Source of the DNA: an uncultured virus (IMG/VR IMGVR_UViG_3300032038_000023)
Lineage: Duplodnaviria; Heunggongvirae; Uroviricota; Caudoviricetes
Reading direction: 5' to 3' (one strand)
DNA length: 56,564 bases
IMG/VR virus record: IMGVR_UViG_3300032038_000023
The translations under genes and the position numbers were made by a program. Positions 5,090-56,174 of the stretch are shown here, piece after piece (the first letter of the stretch is position 1; each line of letters begins with the position of its first letter). The notes under the pieces were generated by a model. The model saw nothing but the letters and a program-made list of their open reading frames with translations, did no database searches and was not told the DNA's origin.

Positions 5090-5566
5090 ATGTCAGACAA
5101 AGTTAAAGTTATTAGTGCATTTGATGGCCGTTGCGGAATTGATAATAGTGATTTACATATTTCTCGTAGATGGCCGGCACGCGGTTCGTATGTGACCTTA
5201 GATAAGGATATTATTGAAGAACTCATGTTCGATGATGCGTTTAAAAATATGGTCGAAGATGGGACGCTTTTCATTGAAGATTTTGAGTTGAAGAAGGAAT
5301 TAGGAATTGAGCCAGAAGATGCAAAAACGCCGACCGTGATTTATCTTGGGGATAAAGAGTTAGAGCGTTTCTGGAAAGTTATGCCGCTGGCGCAGTTCAA
5401 AGTTGAAGTAAAGAAATTAAAGAAGGCCCAAATTGAGTCATTAGCAGACTATGCTATGAATCATGGCGAAGATGGTAGTATTCCCAAGGCTAACTTCTTA
5501 ACGGAAGTGAGCGGCCGCAATATTCTTAAGGGGATTGAGTTAAAGAAAGCTGCCCAGGAGGGTTAA
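5090..5566 (+). CDS. Hypothetical head-module protein, 158 aa
   Basis: AAGGAG RBS, intact ORF after the capsid gene. Confidence 0.7.
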   Translation: MSDKVKVISAFDGRCGIDNSDLHISRRWPARGSYVTLDKDIIEELMFDDAFKNMVEDGTLFIEDFELKKELGIEPEDAKTPTVIYLGDKELERFWKVMPLAQFKVEVKKLKKAQIESLADYAMNHGEDGSIPKANFLTEVSGRNILKGIELKKAAQEG

Positions 5567-5569
5567 TGG

Positions 5570-6025
5570 ATGACTAATTTTCAGGTAGTGTATGACGCCT
5601 TTTTAGCCAAGTAGCTCGATGATGAATGGAATACTTGGGATGAAGAGGACATGCAAGAAGACTGGAAGTCCTTGCTAATGGGTGCGCTCCCTTGGTTTAA
5701 ATTTCCAAGAGTACCATTGGATATTGAGATTGATGAGACAGATGGAACTGAAAAGTTCGCCAGTGATTTAACTAACGAAGAAATTTAGATTTTAGCTACG
5801 TATATGAAATGCGAATGGCTTAATAGGACTATTCTTACTTGGGAGAATGTCAAACCGCTTTATGAAGAGCGCGATTTCTCGCAAGCAAATCTTTTGGATA
5901 AGTTTCATTAGATGCTTGAATAGGAGAAGAAAAATGCGGCTAGATTAGAAGCTGTATATTATCGCTCTATTAAGCGACGGCCATTTGATTATACGAAATT
6001 AGCTACACAAGTAAAAAATGTCTAA
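5570..6025 (+). CDS. Probable head-tail adaptor, 151 aa with 4 TAG (absent from the ORF track)
   Basis: GGAGG RBS. Reads MTNFQVVYDAFLAK(Q)LDDEW...FASDLTNEEI(Q)ILATYMKCEWL...DFSQANLL to TAA 6023-6025. Confidence 0.65.
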
Positions 6026-6272
6026 TGTACTTGAAGGTTATAATAATAACCTAAAGAATAGACTTTTTGCGCTCTTATGTGAATATGAACGAGGACGGGA
6101 ATGGGAGTCTTTCCTAGATTCTATTCTCGTTGAACTCATGTCATATCCGGAAGAACATAAGACTATTAATTATTATCGCCTTTTTACTAAGGTGTCTTCT
6201 CTTCGTTATTTAAGTTTTAAGTATTTTAGATCTACAGTTTTTGACTGTATGAGTTTACTGTCAAAGTTATGA
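6018..6272 (+). CDS. Hypothetical protein, 84 aa
   Basis: Intact ORF overlapping both neighbours; ATGA overlap at 6269-6272. Confidence 0.6.
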   Translation: MSNVLEGYNNNLKNRLFALLCEYERGREWESFLDSILVELMSYPEEHKTINYYRLFTKVSSLRYLSFKYFRSTVFDCMSLLSKL

Positions 6273-6991
6273 GTTACTATGATATTTATCGGTAGAGATT
6301 AAACCGATTTGGTAATGATTATCAATCTCGCGTCCAAGGTGAGAGAGAGCATTTATTTGATCTTTATTTATTAAAGTCGATTTATAGAGTTGACTTTATG
6401 TTTGAAGGCTGCCATCATGCGGGCAGTTTAGAAAAGTATAAATAGGATAATACGAAAACGCAATAGTATTTACTTACTAAGATAGATGTAGAGATCCCAA
6501 ATGGCACAATTCTTATGCTTATGGATAAGGATGGAAATGAAAAGCCATGGATGATCTTCTGGAAAGAAGAAATTAAAGCAAGTGGATATAATCGTTATAT
6601 TGTATTACGTATGACGCATGAATTAACATGGGTTGCACGCGATGGAACTACATAGACTGCTTGGGCGTATATGTATGGTCAAGAAGATAATATGTTGAAG
6701 AATGAAATTCGTTCGCGTTCGCGCATGGATACTATTTATGAAGAAAATATGAAATTAAGTTTCTTTGTAACACCAGCTAATCCAAAAATTAAGATTGATG
6801 ACTATTTTGTTGTTGGTGAAAAGCCGCTTTAGGAGTAGTATAGAGTTACTGGTTATGATATTCAATCTACACCTGGCGTGGAGTTTGTGAGTGTTGACCC
6901 TATTTATGAATTTGATCAAAGCGCGCCGCCAGATAAAGAAACTGGAGAGAATCCCGAAGACTTCTTCTGGTTTAATGGAGGGATTGAATAA
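6269..6991 (+). CDS. Probable head-closure/neck protein, 240 aa with TAG read-through
   Basis: ATG 6269 coupled to the upstream TGA. Reads MSYYDIYR(Q)RLNRFGNDYQSRVQGERE and stays open except for TAG to TAA 6989-6991. Confidence 0.6.
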
Positions 6992-7482
6992 TGGCCGCAA
7001 GAAACTTATCAGATTTAGGGTTAAATTTATAGAAGATTATGACGCGTTTAATGAGTGATCAGATACTTATTAAATTACTTTACTATACTGGAAAAGATCC
7101 ATATAGTGAAGAAGATTTAACCCCGGAACAAATTAAAAATGAGATTTATGAAAAGCACATAAAAGTTGTTCCAAGAATTGGTTCAATTGAGACGGCATAG
7201 AGTTTAGTTACTATACGTGTAGTACGTGGTAATTCAAATGATGGAAATGATGAGTTTAGAAATTTTTAGTTTGCGATTGAAGTTTTCGTGCCATTAACGC
7301 AATGGTATATTAAAGACTCTAATTTGCGGCCGTTCGCTATTATGGGTGAAATTCATAAATGCCTTAATAATAAAACTATTAGTGGACTTGGAAAAATGCG
7401 TGGTGGAGACTTTCAGATTAACTTCATGACTGATGAAATTGTTAGTTATGAAATGTTTTATTCTTTAACGACCTATGATTGA
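6991..7482 (+). CDS. Probable neck/tail-terminator protein, 163 aa with TAG read-through
   Basis: GGAGG RBS and TAATG overlap. Same frame as track ORF 7288-7482. Confidence 0.55.
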
Positions 7483-8221
7483 TCCTTATGCGTTTATTGC
7501 GCGGCCATTTGATTTTAAAGGGCTGTGTAAGATTTATCCACCAAAAATAAATGATATACTTGATGAACGAGATTATCCAGTATATAAAAAATTGTTTCTG
7601 AGTTCACAAGAAGATATAGAGGATGAATATGCTGAGTAGAAGCTTGGGATGGATGAAGTTCCTACTCCTCTTGGCTATTTATTTCTTATGGCCGCGGCAG
7701 ATTCGCGCATTAAACAAATCATAATGAATGGATTTGAGTTCTTTATTAAGGAACCAGTTCTTTTATTGATGGATTAGCAAATAATCGTTATAGGAGATAT
7801 AACTGAGACTTTAAAGAATATAAAATCTGTTGAAGAATTAAGATTAATTCGTGAAGATGATTATTTTGAATTTCAAAATGCTTTACGGCGCGCGATTGGT
7901 GAAAAAGAAGCCGAACCATATAATCCAAACGAAAACCCTAAAATCAAATATTTTAAAGCCAAAGCGAGGTTGCGTGATCGTGTAAAAGCAAAATCAAAGA
8001 ATGCATTGACTTTAGGTTCAACACTTTCTTCAATTTGCTGTATGGGTTTAGGTATAACCCCACTTAATATCGGAGAGTTAAGCTAGGCCGCAATATCGGT
8101 TCTAATGCGTACATATCAAGAGAAGCATAAATATGAAATTGATATTGAGTCGTTAATGAATGGAGCGGATAGCAAAAAAGTAAAACCGCAACCTTGGATT
8201 AGAAATATAGAAGATTTATAA
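7475..8221 (+). CDS. Tail-module protein, possibly tail assembly chaperone-like, 248 aa with 3 TAG
   Basis: Reads MIDPYAFIARPFDFKGLCKIYPPKI...GADSKKVKPQPWIRNIEDL to TAA 8219-8221. Function is inferred from context only. Confidence 0.55.
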
Positions 8222-8238
8222 CTAGGAGGTCATTTTAA

Positions 8239-9153
8239 ATGGCTAGTATTCTTGATCGCTATGGTATTAAAGAAGTCGCTGACGTGACTTTTTATAAGAT
8301 CAATCCCGATGGTACTCCTGGTGCTCCCGTTCTGTTTCTGGATACTTTAAAGGTTTCTACTATCGAGCAGACCGCTGAGACGGTTGACGCCCGTGGTGGT
8401 AAGGGTAACCCGAAGCTGATCACTTGGGACTACGGCAAGGAGATCACCATCAATATCGAAGATGCCCTCTTCAGCCCGAAGTCTATGGCTATCATGCTTG
8501 GCGACGGTACTGTTGCTCAGGGTACTGGTGGATACATCCGCAAGACTGCTGTTGCTCGTCTCGGCGCTGCTGCTGAAGGGGTTATCAAACTGGTTAATGA
8601 CTATGTTACTGCCGACGTGTATGATGCCACTGAAGGATCTAAGCGCGTGAAGCTGTATCTTGGTGCGAATGCGACCGCCCCTGCTGGTGAAGTGAAGCTT
8701 AATGGTCAGCTCGCTTTCTCTATCACTGGTGAGACTGCTAAGCTGTATGACGAAGATGGCACCGTTCTGGACGATGCGTTCTCTGAGTCCGACCTTAAGG
8801 CTCTTTATACGACTGGTCTGACTGTTCCTACTGGTAGGAATCTTGATGGTCATAAAGTTATGTTCACCTACTGGGTGAAGGCGACCACGAAGACGATCAC
8901 TGTTTCTGGTGATACCTTCCCTGGCACCTACTACATGCAGGGCGATACCTATTCTCGTTCTGACGTTGATGGCCGCGACCAGTTCTTCCAGTTCATAGTT
9001 CCTAAGGCTAAGCTCACTGCTGAGCAGACCATCACGCTCGAAGCGGAAGGCGATCCTTCTACCTTCAGCATGAATCTGACTGTTCTGCGTCCTGAGTCTG
9101 GCGAAATGATGAAGCTCGTGCAGTACGATCTTGAGGATCCTTCTGCGGGCTAA
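8239..9153 (+). CDS. Major tail tube protein, 304 aa, TAG-free
   Basis: AGGAGG RBS and high-expression codons. Motifs LDTLKVSTIEQTAETVDARGGKGNPKLITWD and IVPKAKL..EGDPSTFSM. Confidence 0.8.
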   Translation: MASILDRYGIKEVADVTFYKINPDGTPGAPVLFLDTLKVSTIEQTAETVDARGGKGNPKLITWDYGKEITINIEDALFSPKSMAIMLGDGTVAQGTGGYIRKTAVARLGAAAEGVIKLVNDYVTADVYDATEGSKRVKLYLGANATAPAGEVKLNGQLAFSITGETAKLYDEDGTVLDDAFSESDLKALYTTGLTVPTGRNLDGHKVMFTYWVKATTKTITVSGDTFPGTYYMQGDTYSRSDVDGRDQFFQFIVPKAKLTAEQTITLEAEGDPSTFSMNLTVLRPESGEMMKLVQYDLEDPSAG

Positions 9154-9170
9154 TCGGAATAATATAAAAG

Positions 9171-9203
9171 AAATGGCGGAGGATGGATTTCCTTCGCCAT
9201 TTT
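9171..9203 (+). terminator. Intrinsic terminator after the tail tube gene
   Basis: AAATGGCGGAGGA / TCCTTCGCCATTT stem with one G-U pair, then T-rich sequence. Confidence 0.7.
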
Positions 9204-9221
9204 GCTTTATAGGAGGAAGTT

Positions 9222-10016
9222 ATGGACGACAATCTTGGTTCTTTTAAAACATTAGAGTAGGTTCACTTAAAAGCTACTTAGAATATAGAAGTAGGTGGAC
9301 GAACTTTTGAACCTGGAGAGACTATTGCGTATTTTGATAAGATTTAGATTAGTAATTTAAATGAATTGAAAGAGTACGTGGCTGCGCGCGGAGGTTATGG
9401 AAATAGGGGTTTGGTCTATTGGGAAACTACGCGCGAACTAAGGTTTACCTTTACGCAAGGTGTATTTTCCAAGACACAGTTTGGAATTTTGAATAATGCG
9501 AAAGTTATAAATGTAGAAGAAGAAGAGCCACTTTTGATTACGAAAGTTGAAGAGTTAGAAGTGGATGAGTATGGTTAGTTTCATACTGCGGAAGAACCTT
9601 ATGATAGGTTATTTGTGTATTTAAAGGATAACGGATAGAAAATTTAGGTGCTTACAAAAGTTGGTACACTTTTAGAAGTGAGCGCGGAATACGCTTATTA
9701 GAGTGTTGTTGTGATGTATAGATATAATTATACGGGTGGCGGCACTGTTGCGAAGATAGGCTAGAGATGCCTACGTGGATTTTTGGAGTTAGAAGGTAAG
9801 ACGAGAGTAAAGGACGATACGTCTGGACTTATTACAACTGGGATCATTACGATTCCACAACTAAAATTAATGTCTGGCTTATCTATGAAATTAGGCGCGC
9901 AGGCGAATCCCGTGGTTGGAACTTTTGAAGGGGTAGGCGTGCCAGTAGGTTCGAGAAGTGAAAGTTATGTGGCAACTTTTAGTTTTCTGAATGATGATAT
10001 AGATAGTGATATGTAA
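9222..10016 (+). CDS. Tail-tube-like paralog, 264 aa with TAG read-through
   Basis: AGGAGG RBS. Track ORFs 9366 and 9783 are in this frame. ARGGYGNRGLVYWE and IITIPQLKL align by eye with ARGGKGNPKLITWD and FIVPKAKL of 8239-9153. Confidence 0.65.
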
Positions 10017-10021
10017 ATTAG

Positions 10022-10055
10022 TCAGCATTAGTTTTAGCTAATGCTGATTTTATTT
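10022..10055 (+). terminator. Intrinsic terminator before the tape measure gene
   Basis: TCAGCATTAG-TTTTAG-CTAATGCTGA followed by TTTTATTT. Confidence 0.7.
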
Positions 10056-10069
10056 ATGTGAGGTGTAAA

Positions 10070-13000
10070 ATGGCGGGACAAAAGTTTACATTAACATTTG
10101 ACGCTTAGTTAAATGTTAGTTAGATGAATGGCGCATTAAAGTAGATATAGTCTACTCTTAATGGGTTACACTTGCCTTAGAATATCACTCGTGGGTTATA
10201 GGGTGGTATTGATAAATTACAAAAAGAAATAACCAGTTTTGAGAGTCTTGCATCTAAAGATATAACTAGTAAAGCTGATATGTCCAAGCTTGAAACTTAG
10301 GCATAGAAAGTTAGTAATGCTTTTAATTAGTTAAGACGTTCTTTTGCAAATTTAACTGGTTTAAATGGTAGAGATTTAGAAAAGCTTTTTCCTTCTAATA
10401 TTAGTAAAAATATTACCGATGGTTAGAAAGCTTTATCTACTTATACAAAAGATCTAACAAATGCAACGGCTGCGGTAAAAGATTAGAAAGCTGAAGTTGA
10501 TAAATTAAAGCAATCTATAACCGACCTTTAGAATAGAAAAACATATAATAATACTGAATGGAAACAGCTATAGAACGATATTAAGGCTACCGAAGCAGAA
10601 TTAGAGAAATATAAATAGTTAAAAGAATAGGCTGAAATAAAACGTGATGCAAAGTAGGCCGAGCTTCCTAATACATATAAAAATAGTTCCATTTGGCGCG
10701 ATGCTCAAAAAGAAATATAGAAATATCAGCAAGAAATTGACAATACTTAGAAGAAATTAGATGCTTTAAATCAAGCAAAAGTAACTGGTATTAAACAAGA
10801 AGATTAGATTAAAGCTCTTTAGAAATTAAATGCTGAATTAACTGTAGAATAGCAAAAATTTTAGCAATTAACTCAAATTTTATAGTAGTTAAGTAGTAAA
10901 GGTCAAGGTGGCGGTCTTCAACAATTAATTGAGCAAGTTGGTTAGCTTACTGGCTTAGATATGAGTTAGTTTAAGCAAACTACTCAAGGTGCTGGAGAAG
11001 CAATTCGTGTATATTTAAATTAGCAATTACAATAGTTAGGAACTAATTTAAATAATGCTGCTAATAGTGTCAATGGAACAAGTAATGCTTTTGCGAATAA
11101 TCGTTAGCAAGTGCATGAATGTGCTGAAGCATATTAGCAATTTAATACACAAGTGCGCGAAGTTGAACAATTAAAATCGCGTATTCAATATTTCTTTAGT
11201 TTAAATAACGCCATTATGCTGGTTAAGCGCACTTTACGTGAAGCTTATCAGACAATTAAAGATCTTGATAAAGCAATGACTGAGACGGCAGTTGTTACTG
11301 ATTTCTCTGTTGGAGATATGTGGTCACAACTTCCGGATTACACGGCTCGTGCAAATGAGTTAGGCGTTACAACTAAAGCTGCTTATGAGGCGGCAACGTT
11401 ATTCTATCAGCAAGGTTTAAAGACAAATGAAGTCATGGCAATGTCCAATGAGACATTGAAAATGGCACGTATCGCTGGTCTTGATGCGGCAGTTGCAACT
11501 GACCGTATGACCAACGCCATTCGTGGCTTTAATATGGAGATTAACGAGACTAATGCACAACGTATTGACGATGTGTATTCTCGTTTGGCGGCTATTTCTG
11601 CGTCTAACGTTGATGAAATTTCGACTGCTATGACGAAGGTTGCATCTCTGGCTCATAATGCAAATATGGAGTTTGAGACAACTGCGGCATTCTTGGCGTA
11701 GATTATTGAGACTACTCGTGAATCTGCTGAAACTGCTGGTACTGCGTTAAAAACAGTTGTTGCTCGTTTCTCTGAAGTTAAAAAGTTAGTCGATGAAGGC
11801 GAATTAAGTGGTAAAGATGAAGAAGGCGAATTAATTGATGTTAATAAAGTTTCTGAAGCTTTACGTACTGCTGGAATTGATTTAAATAAATATTTCCTTG
11901 GAGAAGTTGGACTTGATGATATATTCATGGAGTTAGCTTCTAAGTGGGATTCTCTTACTACTATTTAGCAAAGATATATTGCTACATAGGCTGCCGGTTC
12001 TCGTCAACAATCGCGTTTTATCGCTTTAATGAGTGATTATGCTCGTACATAGGAACTTGTTGGTGAAGCATACAATGCAAATGGCGCATCAGCAAAACAA
12101 TTTGCAAAGACGCAAGAGTCGTTAGAATCAAAACTTGCTCGTTTAAAGAATGCTTGGAACGAGTTTGCTATGGGCATTCTCAATAATGATCTTGTTAAAG
12201 CTGGTGTTGATTTACTTACTAATATATTAAATGGCGTTAATGCTTTAACCAGTGGTTTTGGTCAACTTAATGAAGGTATAGGCGGAGTTATCAATAGTGT
12301 TTCTAAACTTTTGATGCTATTCGGTGGACTTGGCCTTGGTAAAACTTTACTTGGCGGATTGACTGCTAGTATTTCTAATATTGGTTTAGTTGCTGCTGGA
12401 AAAGCACCATTGAATGTGGCAAAAGCTATGGCGACGTCTGCCGTCGGTGCTGGTGCAACTGGTGCTATGGGTAATCTTGCTGCTCGTGGCGCGGGCGGAG
12501 CAATGCTTGCTGGTTTCCTTAACCCATTTGCTGGAGTTGGCACAGCGGCCAAAGGTATTGGTACTAGTTTATGGGGTGGACTTCAAAAGTTTGGTTTAAG
12601 CACTGCTTTAAAAGGTGGTCTTACTGGTGGAATATCAAACGGAATTGCCGGTGGTGTTTTAGGACTTGGTGGTTCTGCTGAATTAGCTGCTGGTATTGCT
12701 GGCATTGGTACTGCTTTAACTGGTGTTGCAGTAGCAGCTGGAGCAGTTGTCGCTGCATATAAGCTTTGGGAGAAATATACTCCAGAGGGGCAATTAAAAA
12801 CCGCTAAGAAAATTGCTGAAGCCAATCAAAAAATAGCAGATGATACTTAGGCAGAAGCAGATTCTTTAAAGAATTTACAATCTAGTTATGATGAATATAC
12901 TAAAGCAGTAAATGAAGCGACTTCTGTTGAAGAACGGCGTTCGGCTATAGCAGAAAGAAATGATGCTATACTTAAAGCCATTGATAATAATCCAGACTTC

Positions 13001-18373: not shown

Positions 18374-18394
18374 CTTTACTTTAGTATAGGAATT

Positions 18395-18420
18395 AGAAGG
18401 GGACTCTAAGTCCCCTTCTT
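18395..18420 (+). terminator. Hairpin after the tape measure gene
   Basis: AGAAGGGGACT-CTA-AGTCCCCTTCT perfect 11-bp stem. Confidence 0.65.
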
Positions 18421-18436
18421 AAAAGGAGGAATAAAC

Positions 18437-19234: not shown

Positions 19235-19245
19235 GAGGTACTGCG

Positions 19246-24114: not shown

Positions 24115-24118
24115 AAAT

Positions 24119-38927: not shown

Positions 38928-38959
38928 TCAACCACTCTCCATTTCTATTTTCTATATAT

Positions 38960-38988
38960 AGTATACCATAAAATAAAAGGAAAGTCAA
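38960..38988 (-). promoter_or_regulatory. Sigma-A-type promoter of dnaE
   Basis: TTGACT-17-TATACT with TG extension. The -35 overlaps the inverted repeat AAAGGAAAGT/ACTTTCCTTT. Confidence 0.8.
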
Positions 38989-38989
38989 A

Positions 38990-39664: not shown

Positions 39665-39717
39665 GAATATTCACCAACCAATATATATTAATTAAAAACC
39701 AAATTACAAAAATCATT

Positions 39718-44032: not shown

Positions 44033-44035
44033 TAT

Positions 44036-44548: not shown

Positions 44549-44571
44549 CTTTCGATACTTTTTCTATAATA

Positions 44572-44600
44572 ATTATACCATAAATTCTGCTTTTTGTCAA
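44572..44600 (-). promoter_or_regulatory. Sigma-A-type promoter, perfect consensus
   Basis: TTGACA-17-TATAAT with TG extension. Confidence 0.85.
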
Positions 44601-44605
44601 ATTCA

Positions 44606-44636
44606 AAAGGCATAGGTAAACTATACCTATGCCTTT
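44606..44636 (-). terminator. Intrinsic terminator after the ATPase gene
   Basis: AAAGGCATAGGT / ACCTATGCCTTT 12-bp stem. Confidence 0.7.
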
Positions 44637-44652
44637 AACAATATTATAGAGT

Positions 44653-45624: not shown

Positions 45625-45635
45625 ACGCTACCTCC

Positions 45636-46547: not shown

Positions 46548-46596
46548 TTCTTTTTCTCCAGTTTCTTTTAATAGTTTTTTAATAAGTTTCTTTCGG

Positions 46597-46622
46597 AAAA
46601 AGTGGGAGCAAAATTGCTCCCA
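46597..46622 (-). terminator. Intrinsic terminator
   Basis: TGGGAGCAA-AA-TTGCTCCCA stem with a U-tract on the - strand. Confidence 0.65.
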
Positions 46623-46629
46623 TTAATTC

Positions 46630-46887
46630 TTACTCTTCGTCTTCGGACTGAACAAAGTTCATGCCGGCGTCAGTCAGCTGAACATAGGTCAGGGGCTTAT
46701 CTTCGCCTTCAACAGCGACCTTCTCACGATAAGCCAGCTCGTTCTTCACGAGGGAGTTCACACGACCAGTAATGGAAGCGATCTTCTCGCAACCGAGAGC
46801 AACACGCATCTCTTCCGTGGTGGCGCGACCGCCGTGGTTCTGCAGGTAATCAAGTGCTTCAAAAGTCTTCTCAGTAAGTTTTGCCAT
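46630..46887 (-). CDS. Small winged-helix DNA-binding protein, 85 aa
   Basis: SITGRVNSLVKNELAYR..YVQLTDAG wHTH pattern, own promoter, high-expression codons. Confidence 0.65.
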   Translation of the reverse strand: MAKLTEKTFEALDYLQNHGGRATTEEMRVALGCEKIASITGRVNSLVKNELAYREKVAVEGEDKPLTYVQLTDAGMNFVQSEDEE

Positions 46888-46960
46888 TTTTAATTTCTCC
46901 TATTAATAAAAAATATTGTTTAATTTATCTAAGGTTTTTCTTTCTCAACCTTATGTATAT

Positions 46961-46989
46961 ATTATATCATTAATTTTGCTATTTTTCAA
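46961..46989 (-). promoter_or_regulatory. Sigma-A-type promoter
   Basis: TTGAAA-17-TATAAT with TG extension. Confidence 0.75.
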
Positions 46990-46991
46990 AT

Positions 46992-49331
46992 TTACAGTGA
47001 CGAAATTCCAATTACTTTATTATTTGTGAGTTTTATAAGTTTCGTGCCTTGAGTACCGCGCGAAAGAGTAGGAATTTCATTTGATTTAATGCGGATTTGC
47101 GTTGTGTTGGAGTTAATAAGAATGTCGGATGCAGATATAACTGGAATGAAATCGCTCATAGAATCAGATTTCTGGATCTTTACGCCTTTAGTATTTGTGC
47201 CAGTGATATTAAACTCTGAGATTGCGGTTGACTTACCATAACCATCTGTAGAGATACTAAAGAGATGAGTTGTGTTTTTCGGTATGGCTCGCGCGCTGAC
47301 GACATAGTCACCACTATTTAATTTAATACCGATGATACCACGGGTTACACGACCAATAGGTTTAATTGATGCGGTTGTTACCATTATAAACTGGCCGGAT
47401 TTAGACATAATACCAAGGCGATCATCTTCCATAATAAGGATTGAAACAATTTCATCAGCAGAATCGAGTTTGATTGCTTGCGCGCCAACGTTACGCTTCA
47501 TATTATATTCGCTGAGTCGGCTCTTTTTAATAAGACCATTGCGTGTTACAAAGACAATAAACTTTGCGGCGTTTTTAGGATTCAATGATACAGCCGCCGT
47601 AAGCGTTTCAGTATCTCCAATAGAGAAGTAATTAGATAGATACTGTTTTTCACCCACTGTAAAGTCACCCATCTTTAGATGGTAGTAATTGCCTTTATTA
47701 GTAAAGAAGAGAATCGTTTCTGTATTCTCGCCTACTATATTATCTACCAAAATTTCATCTTTTTCAAGTTTGAATTTTTGGCCTACGCCATTACGCCGCT
47801 GAGAATAAAGTGAAGAAGTTTCTGTGACGAATACTGCACCCTTATTTGTAAAGGAGAGTGAGAGTTGCTTCTTTTCGGTTGGTTCATCAGATTCATGTTC
47901 GATATTACGGATCTGAGTGCGGCGGGCGTCTCCGAATTTCTCTGATGTAGTATGCCATCCTTTAATGAGTTCTTTATTAAAGAGTTCTTCATCATTAAGA
48001 ATCGCGCGAAGGCGTTCTGCTTCGGTGGTGAGTTTTTCTTTTTCATCTTCAAGTTTCTTTACTTCGAGATTTGCAAGCCGTGAAAGCTTCATATCGAGGA
48101 CTGCTTTAGCTTGTTCGGCATCCAAAAGGAAGCGTTTCTGTAGTTCAGATGAAGCGGCCGCCGTATTTGTAGAAGACTTGATGACTTTAATGACTTCTTC
48201 TATATTTGCAATACAGATTAAAAGTCCTTCAAGTATATGGATTCTTTTCTCTATCTTCGCAAGATCAAATTCAAAGCCGCGTCGATAGACAACTTTTTCG
48301 TGGCCAATATGATTTTGAAGCGCGGCCTTCCAGCCAAATACTTTCGGAAAGCGTCCGTTCTCAAGCATCGTCATATTGATGCCGAAGTATGATTGAAGCG
48401 AAGTATTCTTGTAAAGGTATTTGAGAACTCTATCGGGATTTGCACGCTTTGTAAGATAGATTTTGATAAGCGGGCCAGTATTCGTAAGGTCGATGAATCG
48501 CTCGATCCCTGGGTTATTCAATTCATCATTTAAAATTTCTTCAAGCTCGCCGCAGATCGTGTTCGTATAAACCGCATAAGGAATCTCGGTTACTACAAAG
48601 CATCTGTCCTTTTGATCCCATTCAACTACACTTCTAAGCTTACATGCCGCACCTTGGCCAGTTTTAAGAGCAGCTTTTACTTCTTCTTCATTCAGAAGAA
48701 TCGCGCCCGTAGCAAAGTCTGGCAAACAACAAATTTCATCAAAAGTTGCATTTGGATTAAGCAGTAAAGTCTCAAGTGCTTCATTCACTTCTTTAAGGTT
48801 GAACTGAGGTATAGAACTCGCAGCACCTACTCCGATTCCTTGCGTTCCATTTACGATATTATAGAACCCTTTAGATGGAAGTACAGAAGGATATTGTTCT
48901 GTGTCATCGTAATTATCACGCCATTCTTTAATTGTTTCTTTATCTATATCTTCGAAGAGTCGTACTGAGAACTCACTCAAGCGCGAAGCCGTATAACGAG
49001 GCGCCGCCCAGTTACCAGATGAGATCAAATTACCGGCGTTACCTTCAACTTCAATTAAAGGATAACGCATTGCAAAGTTCTGACCAGCACGCATAATAAC
49101 ACCTTCACAAGATGAATCGCCATGAATATACATACGTGCGGCCGAGCCAATCGCCTTCAGAGTCTTCTTAAAGGGTTTAGAAGGAAGAAACTTATCTGTA
49201 TAAAGACAATAAAAGATCTGGCGCGCCGATGGTTTCAGACAATCACGCACGTCTACAAGCGCGCGAGACTGAAGAACAGCACCTGCGTACTGGGTAAAGC
49301 CTTCAGATATAACATCTTTTAAATTACTCAT
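46992..49331 (-). CDS. gyrA: Type IIA topoisomerase subunit A (GyrA/ParC family) with C-terminal pinwheel repeats
   Basis: DCLKPSAR, HGDSS, AAPRYT catalytic Tyr, PDFATG, TEIPY and repeated CTD blades. Gyrase versus topo IV is not resolved. Confidence 0.85.
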   Translation of the reverse strand: MSNLKDVISEGFTQYAGAVLQSRALVDVRDCLKPSARQIFYCLYTDKFLPSKPFKKTLKAIGSAARMYIHGDSSCEGVIMRAGQNFAMRYPLIEVEGNAGNLISSGNWAAPRYTASRLSEFSVRLFEDIDKETIKEWRDNYDDTEQYPSVLPSKGFYNIVNGTQGIGVGAASSIPQFNLKEVNEALETLLLNPNATFDEICCLPDFATGAILLNEEEVKAALKTGQGAACKLRSVVEWDQKDRCFVVTEIPYAVYTNTICGELEEILNDELNNPGIERFIDLTNTGPLIKIYLTKRANPDRVLKYLYKNTSLQSYFGINMTMLENGRFPKVFGWKAALQNHIGHEKVVYRRGFEFDLAKIEKRIHILEGLLICIANIEEVIKVIKSSTNTAAASSELQKRFLLDAEQAKAVLDMKLSRLANLEVKKLEDEKEKLTTEAERLRAILNDEELFNKELIKGWHTTSEKFGDARRTQIRNIEHESDEPTEKKQLSLSFTNKGAVFVTETSSLYSQRRNGVGQKFKLEKDEILVDNIVGENTETILFFTNKGNYYHLKMGDFTVGEKQYLSNYFSIGDTETLTAAVSLNPKNAAKFIVFVTRNGLIKKSRLSEYNMKRNVGAQAIKLDSADEIVSILIMEDDRLGIMSKSGQFIMVTTASIKPIGRVTRGIIGIKLNSGDYVVSARAIPKNTTHLFSISTDGYGKSTAISEFNITGTNTKGVKIQKSDSMSDFIPVISASDILINSNTTQIRIKSNEIPTLSRGTQGTKLIKLTNNKVIGISSL

Positions 49332-49359
49332 AACATACTTCCTTTTATTTTATATTTTA

Positions 49360-49388
49360 ATTATACCAGAAAATTAAAGAGAAGTCAA
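49360..49388 (-). promoter_or_regulatory. Sigma-A-type promoter of gyrA
   Basis: TTGACT-17-TATAAT with TG extension. Confidence 0.8.
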
Positions 49389-49389
49389 A

Positions 49390-49554
49390 TTAAGACTTCT
49401 CTTCATAAGGGCAATTATAATGAAAAGGTTCCCATGGTTCAATTTTTATACTTGCACATTCTGGTGTAATTTCTATATTAATTGCAATTTTCTTTTCTAC
49501 TACTGCTTTAATAGATTTATTAAAAATTTCACATAAATAATTATTTATTTCCAT
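49390..49554 (-). CDS. Small hypothetical protein, 54 aa
   Basis: AAGG RBS before ATG 49554 (MEINNYL); very AT-rich. Confidence 0.5.
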   Translation of the reverse strand: MEINNYLCEIFNKSIKAVVEKKIAINIEITPECASIKIEPWEPFHYNCPYEEKS

Positions 49555-49570
49555 TATTTTACCTTCTTTT

Positions 49571-49768
49571 TTATTTATAAATATGAAGCAATGTTCTAAT
49601 TTTTTCTTGACACTCTTCACAGATTTCAATTGGAATACTTGAAGGTGATTGAAACGTCATTACTGTTGTGCCATGTGCCATTGCTTTAGTTTTAACATAC
49701 CCAGGAACAGTATAATGATAAAGAGTTGATGTTTCTTTTTCACAAAGATCACAGAATAATTTTGTCAT
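49571..49768 (-). CDS. Small putative Zn-binding protein, 65 aa
   Basis: CDLCE and CEEC pairs. Confidence 0.6.
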   Translation of the reverse strand: MTKLFCDLCEKETSTLYHYTVPGYVKTKAMAHGTTVMTFQSPSSIPIEICEECQEKIRTLLHIYK

Positions 49769-50040
49769 TTTGTCTACCTAAAGCGTTCATTATTTGCTTT
49801 CGTCCAAGCTTCAAATACTTCTTTTGATGTATAAAATATTGGGTTAAGTGGATTTTCTTTTGATTTTTCCCAGTTTACGAATTTTGGGAAGCCAGTTATC
49901 ATTACAAACTGTCTAACGGTCGGCCGCTGTGTACGTAGCTTTGCGTACTCCATGCAGTCTTCCATATTTGTAAAACTAAAGTCTTTAGAGCGATATTGGT
50001 AATGGATTATATGTCCGTGTTCATCAATTTCAATTTTCAT
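49765..50040 (-). CDS. Hypothetical protein, 91 aa; TAG 49774 read through to TGA 49765
   Basis: Read-through adds QTK and produces an ATGA overlap with the next start. Paralog of 50037-50309. Confidence 0.6.
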
Positions 50041-50309
50041 ATTGATTGTATCGCCTCATCTATTTCTTCATCAGTATAGTAAGTGATTTCATAGTTATTC
50101 GCTTTAGTTGCTTCCCAATTTATATATTGCGGCGTGCCTATTTGGGCAGACACTGTGACAATGCGCGGCGAGCCAGCAATTTTATTTGTTTCAAAGAGTA
50201 TTTTTGCGTACTCTTCGCATTCATTTCTATGCGGGAAGGCTATTAAGATATTACCAACACAATAATATCTAAGACAGCCGTACTAATCTACTTCAAGTTT
50301 AAGTTTCAT
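50037..50309 (-). CDS. Hypothetical protein, 90 aa with TAG at codon 9 (absent from the track)
   Basis: ATGA overlaps at both ends. Reads MKLKLEVD(Q)YGCLRYY...ECEEYAK...GTPQYINWEATKAN. Confidence 0.65.
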
Positions 50310-52159
50310 TCTCGTACCTCTGAGAAATCAATATTTTCAAAGATGAATTTTTTGCGTGGTTCTACATCGTCTCCCATTAGTTGTTCTAGCAAATAAATAC
50401 TATCGGGATCTGGTTCAAGTACATCCATACGTTGAAATTCTGGAGTGAACATAGAGCGTTTAGCTTGTTCCACCGAGAGAGCGCCGAGTCCTTTAGCTCG
50501 TGTAACTTCACCTTTGATTTTATTTCTTACTTTATTAAATTCTTCATCTGTAAAGTAATAAGATTCAGACTTACCATTCTTTACAATGTAGAGTGGGGAT
50601 CTGAGCCAACAGAGTCGGTTCTCATTTAGGAACTCCGGTGCCAAATATCGAAGTGCGGCCATTATAAGGAGGCCTATATGGTATCCATCGCTATCAGCAT
50701 CTGTACAAATCCCAATTCGTCCATACCTAAGCTTCGACGAGTTATACTTACCCGGTACAATATTCATTGCACTGAGCAAAAGCTTAATCTCTTCATTCTG
50801 AAAGATCTTTTCTTCTGGATGGGCCAGACAATTCAAAATCTTACCACGAATCGCCAGAATCCCATAATGTTCATAGTCGCGCGCTTGTGCGATACCACCG
50901 GCCGCCGAATCACCTTCGACAATCAAAAGGGTAGCGTTCTGACCGAGAAATTCTGCGTCTTTGAGTTTATCAGATGCAAAGACTTTTTTCTTTTGATTCT
51001 TTTCAATGTCTTTAGTCGCATCGAGAACTTGCTTACGAGCACGCTCTGCGGCGGCTTCTGCTTTGGCAATCTTCTTCATGAGTTCGACTATAGAATCAAA
51101 CTCATCTTTATATTTGATGCTCATTTGCTTTAAAGCATTACTAAAGCAGTTAGATGCCATTGTGCGAAGATTCGTATTATTGATTTTAGACTTGGTCTGG
51201 TTTGCGAAAGATGGTTGTGCTACGCTACAATTAATAACGTAGAAAAGTCCATTACGAATCGAATCACCATCGAAGTTTTGCTTTGCGAGAGAATTAAAGG
51301 TTCTGGTGATTGATGTTTTCGCGCCAGTGATAGGGCTGCCGCCTTCTGGACAATGAAGTCCATTTACAAACACGTAGCTTTGCTCTCGTTTATTACCCCA
51401 TTGGAAGGCAATTTCAAGTTTATCACCATTTTCATCTGTAATTGAATCATATATAATATGTTTATGTAAAGGTTTTTCTACATTTTCCTTTACGAAATCT
51501 TTGATGCCGTTTTTCGCGCAGAAAGTTTTTACTTCTTTAGTTTGGACATTTTTAATTTCAAAGGTAATACCGCTATAAAGATAACTAATATTCTTTATAT
51601 CTTCACAAATCTTTTGATATGAATATCCAATTTCTCCAGTTTTAAATACTTCTGGATCAGGACAAAATTCTACAATAGTCCCATTTTGAAAGGTGGTATC
51701 ATACTCTTCATAAGATTCTAATTCACCTTTTTTAAAAGAAGCATGCGCACCTTTACCATCACGTATAGAGAAGACATCAAACCAAAGCGCACTTAAACAT
51801 ACACACTTAGCGCCGATGCCGTTGAGACCCGACGCGTTCTTATATGCGCCTTCTTCAAACTTGCCACCGGTGTGAGATTTAGAGTAGATAGAAACCAAAA
51901 CATTTTCACCATCTTCTCTAATTCCAAAAGGAACGCCGCGGCCATAATCTCTTACTCTAATTGCATTTCGTTTTTCATCTACTTCAATCTCTATTTTATC
52001 ACCAAAACCGGCGATTGCTTCATCTGTAGAGTTATTAATGATTTCTTTAAAAGCTTGATATGTGCCTTCGAGGTCATCAGAACCAAGATACATCTGAATA
52101 CGTGACCTTACTCCATCTTTAAAAGAAAGGGATTGGATTTCGTTAATTCCGTATTCCAT
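50306..52159 (-). CDS. gyrB: Type IIA topoisomerase subunit B (GyrB/ParE family)
   Basis: EIINNSTDE, DYGRGVP, HTGGKF, GLNGIG, VEGDSA, TDADSDG and KGLG. Confidence 0.9.
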   Translation of the reverse strand: MEYGINEIQSLSFKDGVRSRIQMYLGSDDLEGTYQAFKEIINNSTDEAIAGFGDKIEIEVDEKRNAIRVRDYGRGVPFGIREDGENVLVSIYSKSHTGGKFEEGAYKNASGLNGIGAKCVCLSALWFDVFSIRDGKGAHASFKKGELESYEEYDTTFQNGTIVEFCPDPEVFKTGEIGYSYQKICEDIKNISYLYSGITFEIKNVQTKEVKTFCAKNGIKDFVKENVEKPLHKHIIYDSITDENGDKLEIAFQWGNKREQSYVFVNGLHCPEGGSPITGAKTSITRTFNSLAKQNFDGDSIRNGLFYVINCSVAQPSFANQTKSKINNTNLRTMASNCFSNALKQMSIKYKDEFDSIVELMKKIAKAEAAAERARKQVLDATKDIEKNQKKKVFASDKLKDAEFLGQNATLLIVEGDSAAGGIAQARDYEHYGILAIRGKILNCLAHPEEKIFQNEEIKLLLSAMNIVPGKYNSSKLRYGRIGICTDADSDGYHIGLLIMAALRYLAPEFLNENRLCWLRSPLYIVKNGKSESYYFTDEEFNKVRNKIKGEVTRAKGLGALSVEQAKRSMFTPEFQRMDVLEPDPDSIYLLEQLMGDDVEPRKKFIFENIDFSEVRE

Positions 52160-52189
52160 TCATTCACCTACTTTTCATTTTATACTTAT

Positions 52190-52218
52190 ATTATACCACA
52201 AACACTCAAAAAAGTCAA
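52190..52218 (-). promoter_or_regulatory. Sigma-A-type promoter of gyrB
   Basis: TTGACT-17-TATAAT with TG extension. Confidence 0.8.
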
Positions 52219-52219
52219 A

Positions 52220-52585
52220 TTAGATTTCCTTACACTCAATTCCATGTTCATTAAACCACTTTGCAACTAAATGTCTATGACAGAAATCATCTGACTTTTC
52301 AAAGCAAACTAAAGTAGGAATTTTTCCTTTACATCCATCAATTAATAATTTAGCGACTTCATGTGGATTAAACGCACTTAATTGTTTATTATATATAATA
52401 GTATATTTTTCTTTTTCTACTTCCGTTTTCGGAGACTTTTTCCACCAACTAAGAAGCATCGGTGAAGGTGCGAGCATCTTCATTGTATATCCTTTATATC
52501 CTTTTGGCGACCATTGTGCGATTGAAACTGGTTCACAATTATCGGGAAGCCGCCGTATATTTCCGAAGTAAGATGTATAAATCAT
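52220..52585 (-). CDS. DUF488-like protein
   Basis: MIYTSYF, LAPS and LVCFEK..FCHRHLVAKW. Confidence 0.7.
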   Translation of the reverse strand: MIYTSYFGNIRRLPDNCEPVSIAQWSPKGYKGYTMKMLAPSPMLLSWWKKSPKTEVEKEKYTIIYNKQLSAFNPHEVAKLLIDGCKGKIPTLVCFEKSDDFCHRHLVAKWFNEHGIECKEI

Positions 52586-52620
52586 ATCCCGCAACTCCTT
52601 TTAGTTTTTCATTATAATTA

Positions 52621-52681
52621 ATCATATCATAAGATTAGTTAGTTTTCAAATTTTGACTTTTCTTTGGGTTCGTGATAGACT
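52621..52681. promoter_or_regulatory. Back-to-back divergent sigma-A-type promoters
   Basis: Minus strand TTGAAA(52649-44)-17-TATGAT and plus strand TTGACT(52653-58)-17-TAGACT, both with TG extension. Confidence 0.7.
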
Positions 52682-52704
52682 ATATATAGAAATTAGAAAG
52701 GAAG

Positions 52705-53208
52705 ATGAATATGTTTAAAGTAAAGAACATTACAACTGGAAACATTGAGCAAGTTTTGAGTGTATTTTGTGATGAATATGGAAAAGCTTGGTTTTTGTTT
52801 TGGGTTGGTAAAAAATGGGCTTGGCGGCCTGCTGATAATTATTGTCCGCCAAATTATACACCGAAGAAAAATGTAATTGTGGCTGGAAGCCGTAGTTTTA
52901 ATAATTATCAACTTGTTAAGGAGACTTTGGACGCGCGCAAAGATTCGATTGAAAAGATTGTGAGTGGTTGTGCTAAAGGTGCTGATACGCTTGGTGAAAC
53001 TTGGGCAATAAAGAATGAAATTCCTATTAAAAAGTTTCCTGCTTATTGGGAAACCTATGGGGCGGCCGCTGGATACATACGGAACCATGCGATGGGTGAT
53101 TATGCAGATGAACTCATTGCTTTTTGGGATGGCATATCTCCAGGCACAAAGGATATGATTGATTATATGCATAGTCTTGGTAAGCCTGTAGAAGTAATTC
53201 ATTTTTAA
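52705..53208 (+). CDS. YspA/SLOG-family (DUF2493-like) protein with an extra Trp-rich N-terminal domain
   Basis: VIVAGSRSF, VSGCAKGAD, AAGYIRN and IAFWDGISPGTKDMI. Confidence 0.8.
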   Translation: MNMFKVKNITTGNIEQVLSVFCDEYGKAWFLFWVGKKWAWRPADNYCPPNYTPKKNVIVAGSRSFNNYQLVKETLDARKDSIEKIVSGCAKGADTLGETWAIKNEIPIKKFPAYWETYGAAAGYIRNHAMGDYADELIAFWDGISPGTKDMIDYMHSLGKPVEVIHF

Positions 53209-53273
53209 CTTTTTAATAGACGAATCCATAACAATATCTACATATATGTATAGAATAAAATGGAGGTATTCCA

Positions 53274-53873
53274 ATGGATAACATTTTACGTGTAGCTTTT
53301 AAAGGTGAAACAGAGATAACATCTCGTTCTCTTTATTAGTATGACTATGGTCAATATTTAAAGTTTATTGATATTGATTTACCAGCAGCATATGAAGTAC
53401 ATTTTTCTAATAAAATCACTGTCGACTCTACTACTTCCGTTGGGAATGAAAATGGGGTTTTAATTCCAGATGAGTATTTGTTAAGTGGACTTCCAGTATA
53501 TGCTTGGGTCTTTCTTCATACGGGGCAAGCGGATGGAGAAACGAAGTATACCGTTACTATTCCAGTTATAAAACGCTCGCGCCCATCGAATGAGACTCCT
53601 ACTCCTTAGCAGCAGGACGTTATTGAATAGACGCTTGCCGCACTTGAACGTAACGTGCGTGGCAGCCAGCGTGCGATTACGGCAGCAAACAACGCAGAGA
53701 CATATGCAGACAATGCACGTGTTTACGCGGCCGAGGCAAACAATCGTAGAGATCAGTGCTATGAAATTTACAACCAAATAAAAGACAGCGCAGATATAGG
53801 TTACATTACTATAGGAGAAACTAGACTTACGCAATCCGACTTAATAAAATTGCTGGCTCTAATATAGGAGTGA
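53274..53873 (+). CDS. Baseplate/tail-associated protein, 199 aa with TAG read-through
   Basis: GGAGG RBS. Motifs LY(Q)YDYGQ, YEVHFSN, IPDEYL and TIPVIKRSRP; ends at TGA 53871-53873. Confidence 0.65.
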
Positions 53874-53952
53874 TTCTTCAAAATAGTTGAGCGATGTGTC
53901 GAATCACCTACTTTCTATCAAGAGATGAGTTTTATTTTAAGGGGTAATAATA

Positions 53953-55272
53953 ATGGAATATACACAAGAAATGACCCTTGACGTTAACTCCAATACTGCG
54001 TATACAGTTGTTGGCGCAAAGCAAGGCGATTCCAGCAGTCGTATTATTGTGGTTCATATCACAAAAAATGGTGTTCCTTATATTATTGAGCCTAATACTA
54101 CAGCTTATTTCCGCTTTAAGAAGCCAGATGGTAAAGCCATTTTGAATGAAGCGTATATCAATTATACTGATAATACGGTTTCTGTTATACTGACTTCGCA
54201 AACGCTCGCTGCCTATGGTCGTGGCTATGCAGACGTTGTTCTGTATGGTGCTAATTAGGAGATTCTGTCTACCGTATCGTTCGTGTTACTGATAATGGCG
54301 GCACCGAATATTACGGAAGCTGCTGTGTCCAGTGATGAGTTTGGATATTTGTAGGCGATCGTTGATAGTGCAAACGCAACGATTTATGAATCAGAAGCGT
54401 GGGCAGTTGGTACACGAAGTGGTATTCCAGTCGTCGGTGATTATTTCAACTATCAGATTATAGGTAGTAATACGTTTACTTGCACTATTGTCGAAGATAC
54501 TTTTAGAGAAAAAGTTGGTATTGACCCCGGTGGTACAAACCAATATATAGTAAAGTGTGAAGCAGTAACGTATGATGAATAGGGTCATAATATCTATACG
54601 TGGTCAATTGATGGCACGAATGGGTTGCATGATCCTAATATTGATCTTGACGAATATGGAATTACGATCGAAGGCTTTGCAAACGTTAGTAACATAATTT
54701 AGGTTGATGTTACTGATCCAGATCTTTAGTATTAGAATAATGCTAAGTACTGGGCGCATGAGACGGTTAATGCAAAGGATTCGATTGATAATCTGGATAT
54801 TTCTACTACTATATTACCTTCTGATGCGGAACCATCTGTTGATAAGACTCAGATTGAGGATGTTAATGTAACAAGGAGTTCAACAGTCCTTGGAACGGTT
54901 ACGGTTGATAAAGATACGTTTATCGCGGCCGTTGGTGAATATGGGACATATGACTTTAAGTACAATGGTACGAGTTGGGTTATTGATGCAACGATTGTTA
55001 CGTTAGACACTTATGGTATTACATATACTGGAACCGCAATAGACGGAAATAGTATAGAAGTAGTTTATAGTTATCACAAACACTTTAACTTTAATATTCC
55101 TCGTGGTCTTACTGGTGATGTTAACTTTATGACGTTTGAGATTAAACCGGAAGATGGGTATTTATATATGTATCGTCCGGATCATGGAACGGAAGGAGTT
55201 AGCTTTGCTATTATTGCTTATGGGCCAAATGAAGGATGTTTAAGTGTTGAGATAGAAATGGGTGAGGATTGA
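53953..55272 (+). CDS. BppU-like baseplate upper protein, 439 aa with TAG read-through
   Basis: AKQGDSSSR, KKPDG, LTSQTLA and ESEAWAVG; open except for TAG to TGA 55270-55272. Confidence 0.7.
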
Positions 55273-55274
55273 AT

Positions 55275-56174
55275 ATGAGTAGTACTGCTATAACTGTTTT
55301 AGGTAGAGTTCAGCCTAACTATAGAGGCACTTACAGTGCATTAAATACATATGACAAGCTTGACTGGGTTGTTTATAATGGCAGTTCTTACGTATGTAAG
55401 ATAAATGGTACTAGCGCACATTCTCCAACCGAAACTGGATATTGGTAGTTACTTGCTGCAAAAGGTGATAAAGGTAATACTGGTGATACGGGTAGTTTTG
55501 GTACACCAACGGCTTCCGCACATAGTTTAGTTACCGGTTCTGAACCGACTGTAGTTATAACTGCGAGTGGTCCTGATACTGCGAAAGTTTTTGATTTTCA
55601 ATTTGGTATTCCGGCTGGGCCGGTTGGGTTTGATGCAGTTCAAGCCTCGGCAACATCTCTACCAGCATCTGCGAGTGCTACAGTTGAAGCATCAATTAGT
55701 AAAGTAGGAGATGTAACTACTTTAGAGTTTGAGTTTGGTATTCCAGCGGCTGATGGATCTGGCGCCAAGAGCGTTGATGGTATTTAGGCCGATGCTGCGG
55801 GTAATATCACAGTTGGTGCAATTAGTTATACAAGAACTTAGAGTCTTTCTGAAGCATAGGCTGGCCGCGCAAGAACGAACATCGCGGCTTTACGTGAGCC
55901 AGATCAGAAAAGCTACGGACAGTATTTATAGTATGGTGGAGACGTAAGTAATCCTTCGTGGATTGCGGCCGCTATTAATGAAGTACCGGTCGGCGGCATG
56001 GCTGGGTACGTTCTGAGAAAGCAGAATAATGCTTATGGATGGACGCCCGCGTATGAAATTCCTTCGGGTGGTTTAGCTGGCTATGCACTTGTAAAAGCTT
56101 CAAATACGAATTATGATGTTACTTGGGAAGGCATCACAACTATCGCTGAAATTGATGAAATGATTGATGGCTAA
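55275..56174 (+). CDS. Tail fibre-like protein with a CBM5/12-like N-terminus and short collagen-like stretch, 299 aa with TAG
   Basis: YDKLDWVVYNGSSYVC..YW(Q)LLAAKGDKGNTGDTG, two F.FGIP repeats and two P.GG.AGY.L.K repeats; TAA 56172-56174. Confidence 0.65.

Follow-up and report, generated by a model that had tools for sequence, protein, structure and literature searches.

The window considered here, a 56,564-nucleotide stretch of DNA from an uncultured member of the Caudoviricetes (IMG/VR record IMGVR_UViG_3300032038_000023), covers about half of a ~120-kb siphophage of the ruminant gut in which TAG is recoded. It has a GC content of 37.9% and carries, dispersed along its length, the words GCGGCC and GGCCGC and the palindrome GCGGCCGC, which is formed by two overlapping copies of GCGGCC. 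The open reading frames (ORFs) of the plus strand are fragmented under translation table 11 and open under table 15, the change of code raising ORF cover of bases 1-24,500 from 0.28 to 0.96. Alongside the structural genes lies a replication module encoding RuvC, dUTPase, NrdD, DnaE, an N4/N6 methyltransferase, RecJ, primase, DnaB, Sak4, GyrA and GyrB (Table 1).

Table 1. Words and genes in the window (a 'reader' is a protein that might recognise the words)
Feature	Position	Strand	Remarks
Structural module (tail tube, tape measure, tail proteins)	11..24114	+	needs TAG = Gln (table 15)
Dispersed GCGGCC/GGCCGC sites	1226..55972		69 hits at 60 loci
GCGGCCGC	5511..5518		exact match
GCGGCCGC	19693..19700		exact match
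GCGGCCGC	34729..34736		exact match
GCGGCCGC	37533..37540		exact match
GCGGCCGC	38012..38019		exact match
GCGGCCGC	41719..41726		exact match
GCGGCCGC	48154..48161		exact match
GCGGCCGC	53062..53069		exact match
GCGGCCGC	55965..55972		exact match
N4/N6 DNA methyltransferase, accessory gene	38990..39637	-	PF01555
DnaG-type primase, rival reader	41448..42494	-	phrog_47, E 1e-39
Sak4-like single-stranded DNA annealing protein, rival reader	44653..45624	-	PF13479; phrog_124, E 2e-53
Probable SSB-type protein	45636..46547	-	PHROG 2367; function inferred from place before Sak4, as in SPbeta
85-aa winged-helix protein, MarR-like fold, candidate reader	46630..46887	-	model pLDDT 90
Gyrase/topo IV subunit A, C-terminal propeller repeats	46992..49331	-	PF00521, PF03989
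Gyrase/topo IV subunit B	50306..52159	-	PF00204, PF01751

A first-pass annotation, made from the letters alone, had listed nine copies of GCGGCCGC where about 0.1 would be expected; all nine are exact, the window holds no further copy, and a zero-order expectation agrees with that figure. Its estimate by eye of about 50 6-mers was real but too low, since there are 34 copies of GCGGCC and 35 of GGCCGC, at 60 distinct sites with a mean gap of 928 bp, and the two examples it gave, at 1226 and 7501, are both genuine. As it also stated, the sites lie within genes on both strands and in varied reading frames: all three frames are found, and the nine 8-mers encode AAA five times, GGR or SGR three times and LRPL once. 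The annotation had proposed that its claim would fall if the excess disappeared on codon-preserving shuffling, a test that requires the correct code. In 500 within-gene synonymous shuffles under table 15 the excess persists: the 8-mer is observed nine times against 0.61 expected (maximum 4), GCGGCC 34 times against 6.4 and GGCCGC 34 times against 6.2, or 68 against 12.6 together, one hit at 6993 being left out of the count because it falls in a trimmed gene overlap. All six strand-frame classes are enriched, 5- to 28-fold. The excess survives synonymous shuffling and is therefore not caused by the proteins or by codon usage. Palindromes are otherwise avoided in the window (observed/expected GATATC 0/17, GAATTC 4/21, CTGCAG 1/14.5, ATCGAT 2/17, CCGG 43/73). 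The 8-mer is also present in two complete relatives, with 17 copies in G001 (124 kb) and 13 in G002 (123 kb).

The overlapping 7-mers of GCGGCCGC nevertheless account for all of its copies (maximal-order Markov z = -0.8), and as a palindrome it is therefore nothing special. It marks the extreme of a graded preference, one for uninterrupted G/C runs that reach 6 bp or more and are rich in GC and CG steps. The core is GCGCG, with GCGGC and GCGGCC additionally favoured in this subclade, and the GCGGCC/GGCCGC sites form part of about 239 merged patches of GCGCG, CGCGC, GCGGC and GCCGC with a mean gap of 235 bp. The annotation's dispersed, selected signal at the DNA level thus stands, whereas the palindrome is too narrow a unit and gives way to patches of G and C alone, 6 bp or longer, with GCG at their core. 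GCGCG is enriched 2.9-fold, GCSGC 2.6-fold and runs of 9 bp or more about 4-fold. When exact G/C runs are counted, the observed/expected ratio is 0.85-0.93 at 3-5 bp, 1.27 at 6 bp, 2.26 at 8 bp and 4.0 at 9 bp or more, and the odds of a synonymous G or C rise with the length of the run that it completes, from 0.86 at 4 bp through 1.56 at 6 and 2.5 at 8 to 4.3 at 10. Pooled Bacillota controls stay at 0.8-1.0 across run lengths, and other phages are flat too. The effect reaches about 6 bp to either side of the synonymous position, and the flanks act jointly, three G/C bases on both sides giving 2.8 against 0.78 for the left alone and 1.07 for the right alone. In a greedy model of synonymous choice fitted to the window and G001 the positive words are GCGCG (0.97 log-odds), GCGGC (1.45), CGGCC (0.61) and GCGGGC (1.24), a per-word strength of about 1-1.5; GCGCG, GCGGC and CGGCC are picked rather than one palindrome enriched beyond its sub-words, as would be seen at a site of the HIP1 type. 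The GCGGCC consensus extends upstream to GCGCGGCC, and CCC/GGG runs are depleted.

The patches are scattered at random, with a coefficient of variation (CV) in spacing of 0.89 for GCGGCC and 1.05-1.19 for the wider patch set, and the wider word set is spread over the whole length of G001 and G002. Some patches lie beyond the called ORFs, in DNA that takes in tRNAs and missed genes. Helical phasing was not found (Rayleigh z 0.3-1.7 at a period of 10.5, with no peak at offsets of 10-11). Across the window, G001 and G002 the words have no polarity (observed/expected 3.43 for GCGCG and 3.76 for CGCGC; 4.28 for GCGGCC and 3.72 for GGCCGC). GC skew switches with gene direction; when the coding strand is assumed to be the leading strand, the words show none of the strand polarity relative to fork direction that primase sites would have. 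Neither the polar orientation nor the clustering at DNA ends or replication regions expected of Chi was seen. A packaging cue, which the annotation had also suggested, or a cue at genome ends is disfavoured by this uniform, unpolarised spread in two complete relatives. A signal in mRNA stems is unsupported, opposite word pairs at 8-40 bp being as frequent as chance predicts in three genomes.

The capsid-like protein of the phage matches 80 IMG/VR loci at 59-97% identity, several of them on contigs of 110-127 kb, and the 51 loci of at least 9 kb were scored, although these are not independent of one another. GCGCG is enriched at least 2-fold in 48 of the 51, and GCGGCC at least 3-fold with at least five copies in 19; the GCGCG excess is clade-wide, and the GCGGCC excess is a subclade variant. 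One far clade has GCGCG at 3.7-fold yet avoids GCGGC (0.41-fold). In phAss-1 the signal is weak, runs of at least 7 having an odds ratio of 1.48. Small counts aside, GCGCG is not in excess in EF1, SPbeta, Lenus, GR1, E3, CB473P2, DH5, a Staphylococcus SPbeta-like phage or a Clostridioides phage, and the long-run value of 2.8 in the Staphylococcus SPbeta-like phage reflects only 15 runs against 7. Of the bacterial stretches compared, 102 in number and each 6 kb or longer, one reaches 2-fold for GCGCG and one for GCGGCC, counts that do not support a host genomic signature as the source. Shared genes hold 7.0-7.5 patches per kb, accessory or divergent genes 4.2-4.9. In several GC-rich Bacillota samples GGCGG/GCGGC was skewed towards the coding strand (G023, G031, G077; L266, L274, L298), for example GCGGC at 123/98 sense against 62/80 antisense, and this is a possible Chi-like word in those bacteria.

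Comparison of relatives bears on how the patches persist. Synonymous sites are near saturation (four-fold identity 0.45-0.48). Four-fold G/C is nevertheless kept about twice as often within GCGGCC (27/58 and 34/59) as outside it (267/1062 and 252/1019), and the whole word is kept in 15/32 and 16/34 cases where the amino acids are kept, whereas it arises in 8/92 and 8/86 where the window lacks it. Triplet counts give 2/58 motif-destroying transitions against a background of 132/864 (p = 0.01). In tree-based counts, for which the ancestral reconstruction ignores sequence context, GCGGCC losses to A/T number 12 against 24.6 expected. GCGCG losses are near expectation, with 4 against 8.5 on internal branches in a second count, and its gains are raised, 11 against 4.8 in the near clade and 9 against 2.7 in the far clade. 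A separate tally of GCGCG gains finds them at all five positions, with more transitions (18 against 7.5) and transversions (7 against 1.9) than expected. Conservation of motif bases together with gains by all types of mutation fits weak selection, and the patches are best read as maintained by weak selection or by a drive resembling it. The excess is clade-wide, orientation-free, uniform, randomly spaced, dependent on both flanks and maintained, and orientation-free, genome-wide sites kept by selection are what the dispersed sites of a nucleoid-type DNA-binding protein would be.

The reading preferred here, with a probability of about 0.4, is that a clade-specific DNA-binding protein of the phage uses the patches as landing sites in either orientation. 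The lineage weakly and consistently favours G or C, whether at synonymous or at non-coding positions, where that base completes an unbroken patch of GC and CG steps about 6-10 bp long, and such patches may serve as low-specificity landing sites on double-stranded DNA. The putative protein would organise the replicating chromosome, or load the recombination or replication machinery every few hundred base pairs. Which word dominates in a given lineage is probably trimmed by avoidance of restriction sites (CCGG, GGWCC, GCNGC). The lead candidate is the 85-aa winged helix-turn-helix (wHTH) protein, already named by the annotation as a possible reader, whose gene lies directly upstream of those for SSB and Sak4. 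Its best Foldseek matches are wHTH proteins of MarR type (best E 1.1e-3, TM ~0.68), and it is found in all five clade genomes, weakly in phAss-1, and in none of seven outgroup phages without the GCG signal. It stands as a live but unproven lead. Many IMG/VR records of the wHTH are only 2.1-3.0 kb long (L166, L181-L183, L185, L191, L195, L201, L209, L211 and others); if these come from RNA data, the wHTH-SSB-Sak4 unit would be highly expressed.

Several observations weigh against such a reader. Inspection of 47 loci revealed no co-variation of the wHTH recognition helix with the word variant: near-identical helices accompany GCGGCC at 25/2 (L167) and at 2/3 (L204), and the GCGCG excess is common to loci whose helices differ widely. 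The co-occurrence of wHTH and signal is confounded with ancestry, as it would be for any clade-specific gene. Control words show positional memory too (odds ratios 0.8-8.2, against 7.8-9.3 for GCGGCC), and terminal branches show no shortage of GCGCG losses (55 against 45 expected). In addition, one physical parameter fits both clades, so that a sequence reader may be unnecessary. The topoisomerase, the annotation's other candidate, finds no support in comparison: four other gyrase-bearing phages have odds ratios of 1.48, 1.31, 1.07 and 0.37 against 2.3-2.7 here, a comparison by which gyrase was rejected as a predictor of the signal, and the patches lack a 10.5-bp phase, helical periodicity being a feature of the gyrase binding motif. 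MT835476 had the look of a bacterial fragment, gyrA and gyrB being its only matches.

The single physical parameter is duplex stability, on which selection might act with no reader of sequence at all, whether because stacked G/C nuclei speed single-strand annealing by Sak4 and SSB in recombination-dependent replication or because they clamp AT-rich DNA, supercoiled by the phage gyrase, against melting. Among the 16 all-G/C 5-mers the observed/expected ratio ranks with nearest-neighbour stability (rho 0.92; the energies used are reportedly the SantaLucia 1998 values). One stability term (excess nearest-neighbour stability over 5-6 bp) yields a log-likelihood gain of 451-472 in the near clade, against 530 for four fitted words (85-89%), and of 176-205 against 247 (71-83%) in the far clade, gains that are approximate in that the fits are not fully converged; its coefficients are equal in the two clades (0.92 vs 0.89, 0.63 vs 0.60). 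That the effect grows with run length and needs no orientation also suits this explanation. However, specific words keep weight beside the stability term (GCGGC 0.97, GCGCG 0.55), spacing is random where even spacing would be expected, and SPbeta, with its annotated Sak4-like gene, is without the signal, as are the gyrase-bearing GR1 and E3. The control bacterium G292 moreover has the same rank order (rho 0.87) without any excess (total 0.94), so it is amplitude and not rank that is special in the phage. Selection on stability alone is held to be unlikely, though it and a host Chi-like site come close behind the preferred reading. A composite in which the synonymous sites of this AT-rich gut phage family carry a physical code, with 6-10-bp nuclei of maximal stability, selected equally strongly in distant lineages, as landing or annealing points for wHTH, SSB and Sak4, is speculative and somewhat unlikely. 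A neutral bias of mutation or repair, be it a T:G-mismatch pump, methylation-linked repair or proofreading that fails beside stable duplex, would explain why the rise in GCGCG gains is clearer than the fall in losses, and the lower patch density of accessory genes is what amelioration would give. Yet the transition partner is drained no more than the other A/T base (0.63 vs 0.58 near, 0.53 vs 0.51 far), on which ground a T:G-repair pump was rejected, and single-change neighbours such as GTGCG and GCACG reach or exceed expectation where a Vsr or T:G-repair footprint would deplete them specifically. The gains include transversions and fall at every position, both flanks are needed jointly, which rules out a one-sided polymerase effect, and no C5 methyltransferase was found in five relatives, two of them complete; a neutral origin seems very unlikely.

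Other alternatives invoke known site-specific machinery. The patches might act as a Chi-like site of the host, attenuating its AddAB nuclease at DNA ends and doing so in both orientations since ends arise anywhere; an AT-rich phage would then have to select for a word that comes at no cost in a GC-rich host, an idea put forward for Chi of P1. Work on P1 provides a precedent for selected Chi on both strands and lists Firmicutes Chi words that share GCG (AGCGG, GAAGCGG, GCGCGTG; 10.1101/2021.07.08.451572), and the Bacillota samples with skewed GGCGG/GCGGC point the same way. Against this, the end clustering and polarity of P1 and LLS are absent, the signal is a length-graded family rather than one word, and the phage encodes its own Sak4, RecJ and RuvC. 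G001 has AGCGG at close to its expected count (104/109), the word model disfavours AGCGGC and GCGCGT stands at 0.8-fold, while distant relatives with known hosts are either depleted of AGCGG (1/12, 0/8, 0/7) or neutral (SPbeta 20/22), and a Chi-like role appears quite unlikely. Priming sites, at which a DnaG-type primase would start on GC-rich templates (ending, for example, in GCC or GCG) about every kilobase, could lie on either strand, each locus being crossed by forks moving both ways. Some primases do start on C/G-only trinucleotides, as with CCC in C. difficile according to one report (PMC5204125), a per-strand spacing of ~0.7-1.6 kb suits Okazaki fragments, and the GCGGCC consensus extends upstream. 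The words nonetheless lack leading/lagging polarity although GC skew follows gene direction, the residues of the primase zinc domain do not, by eye, track the word variant, and CCC/GGG runs are depleted, which leaves priming about as improbable as neutral bias. The annotation had also offered the words as a target of the phage methyltransferase. That gene is present in the window, but PF01555 occurs in none of the five relatives searched for it, four of which are at least 90% complete and all of which have the signal in their own loci, and PF00145 occurs in none of five. The gene is missing from its syntenic place in G001 and G002, and close-strain contigs (runs X1 and X3) jump over it, with joints from 39001 to 39669 and 39678. 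A role as its target therefore has next to no probability. The signal is real, selected and clade-wide, and it does not behave as Chi, HIP1, a Vsr footprint or a methyltransferase target.

HIP1 of cyanobacteria, which like related highly iterated palindromes is a single word of cellular genomes linked to its own cognate methyltransferase, resembles the patches in being a dispersed, in-gene, frame-independent GC-rich palindromic word conserved at synonymous sites. In the phage, by contrast, the palindrome is a by-product and no cognate methyltransferase is shared by the genomes that bear the signal. With the Chi sites of P1, P7 and D6 and of LLS and MD8 the patches share over-representation of short GC-rich words beyond codon usage. 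Chi, however, is one fixed word equal to the RecBCD site of the host, whereas the patches are graded, uniform and unpolarised, with no host match found. Chi of P1 is near-random in orientation and clustered near the genome ends (10.1101/2021.07.08.451572), and that of LLS and MD8 is polar (PMC12315714). The Enterocloster phage CB473P2 shows restriction-site avoidance with a compensatory excess (GCAGC 0/21, GCGGC 30/11), and the window phage likewise avoids CCGG, GGWCC, GCWGC and many 6-bp palindromes, which contributes to its GCSGC excess. Avoidance cannot, however, yield a 2.9-fold excess of GCGCG or the rise with run length, and CB473P2 lacks both that excess and any rise from 7 bp upwards. 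Further parallels are the related DnaE-encoding siphophages VPE25 (CCATGG) and EF1 (CCAAGAG), with homologous replication modules and lineage-specific, both-strand, in-gene motifs that survive codon shuffling; these are fixed words, unlike the patches, and that of VPE25 is concentrated in the first 35 kb. A literature search found no description of the patch signal, supplementary tables and most subscription journals lying outside its reach, nor one of the VPE25 motif. In Enterococcus phage VPE25 (LT615366, L329:561-35183) the palindrome CCATGG is dispersed in genes, often inside CTCCATGGAG, with 48 copies in the first 35.2 kb and 8 in the remaining 51 kb (42 vs 13 on codon shuffling). In Enterococcus phage EF1 (L141) CCAAGAG/CTCTTGG is dispersed on both strands (23 vs 5).

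Phages mostly lose short GC-rich palindromic words, and this family gains them in every frame and against strong AT pressure. That is direct evidence that phage synonymous sites carry a genome-wide function at the DNA level besides restriction avoidance. If the composite reading, that of a physical code at synonymous sites, is correct, the patches would constitute a dispersed genome signal defined by the thermodynamics or shape of DNA rather than by a fixed word, and VPE25 and EF1 would carry analogous undescribed signals. The wHTH supplies a small, foldable candidate protein. The signature marks the clade (48/51 loci against 1/102 bacterial stretches) and could aid binning. For now the signal ranks as a well-characterised puzzle and not as a new system.

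The carrier itself resembles the phAss-1 group and Agate-type recoded gut phages, in which TAG is read through in structural genes and most replication genes keep the standard code. Its capsid protein is 35% identical to that of phAss-1. The papers on these phages (PMC10607447, 10.1101/2021.08.26.457843) do not mention the patch signal in their accessible text, which was searched for other terms. In the window TAG encodes Gln in the structural genes and in ruvC (10 TAG), at 11-24114 (+), 24705-25708 (-) and 52672-56527 (+); the replication genes have hardly any TAG, and the probable capsid and tail-tube genes have none. A tRNA search of the window found none, and ARAGORN detected no CTA-anticodon tRNA among 22 tRNAs in G001 and 10 in G002. 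The habitat-labelled holders of the capsid loci are mostly cattle or sheep gut runs. Scans of genome contigs with the capsid and permease gave mixed bins (Bacteroidaceae, Faecalibacillus, Erysipelothrix, Clostridia) as hosts, and hardly any protein names were present. When 19 kb of phage sequence was searched against 301 Bacillota genomes, the matches were all weak and short, the single exact 26-base match lying outside any CRISPR array, and a tRNA cluster query gave 74-77% matches at best. Host candidates from the order of G010 did not match, and some Bacillota with high raw GCGCGGCC counts were rejected because the excess went after codon shuffling.

Auxiliary genes at 27097-31072 (-) encode a CAP-domain protein, a xanthine/uracil permease, a nucleoside 2-deoxyribosyltransferase and a GT8 glycosyltransferase, and a GT2 glycosyltransferase was found elsewhere in G001. 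A 368-aa gene between dnaE and nrdD (33817-34923, -) is conserved, being 66% identical in G001 and G002; it has no match in Pfam, PHROG or Atlas, and its predicted fold is unusable (pLDDT 33). The Chi word of B. subtilis, AGCGG, is rarer than expected in four phages (L325-L326, L327, L142, L335): DH5 of Staphylococcus (1/12), GR1 (0/8) and E3 (3/10) of Geobacillus, and one of Clostridioides (0/7). Within the window, CAGG (80/216), GAGG (69/224) and GGWCC (3/21) are strongly depleted on both strands, as are A-tracts (AAAAAAA/TTTTTTT 1/43). A second word, TAAAG/CTTTA, is enriched on both strands (405 vs 231), and more weakly so in G001 (544/470) and G002 (515/465).

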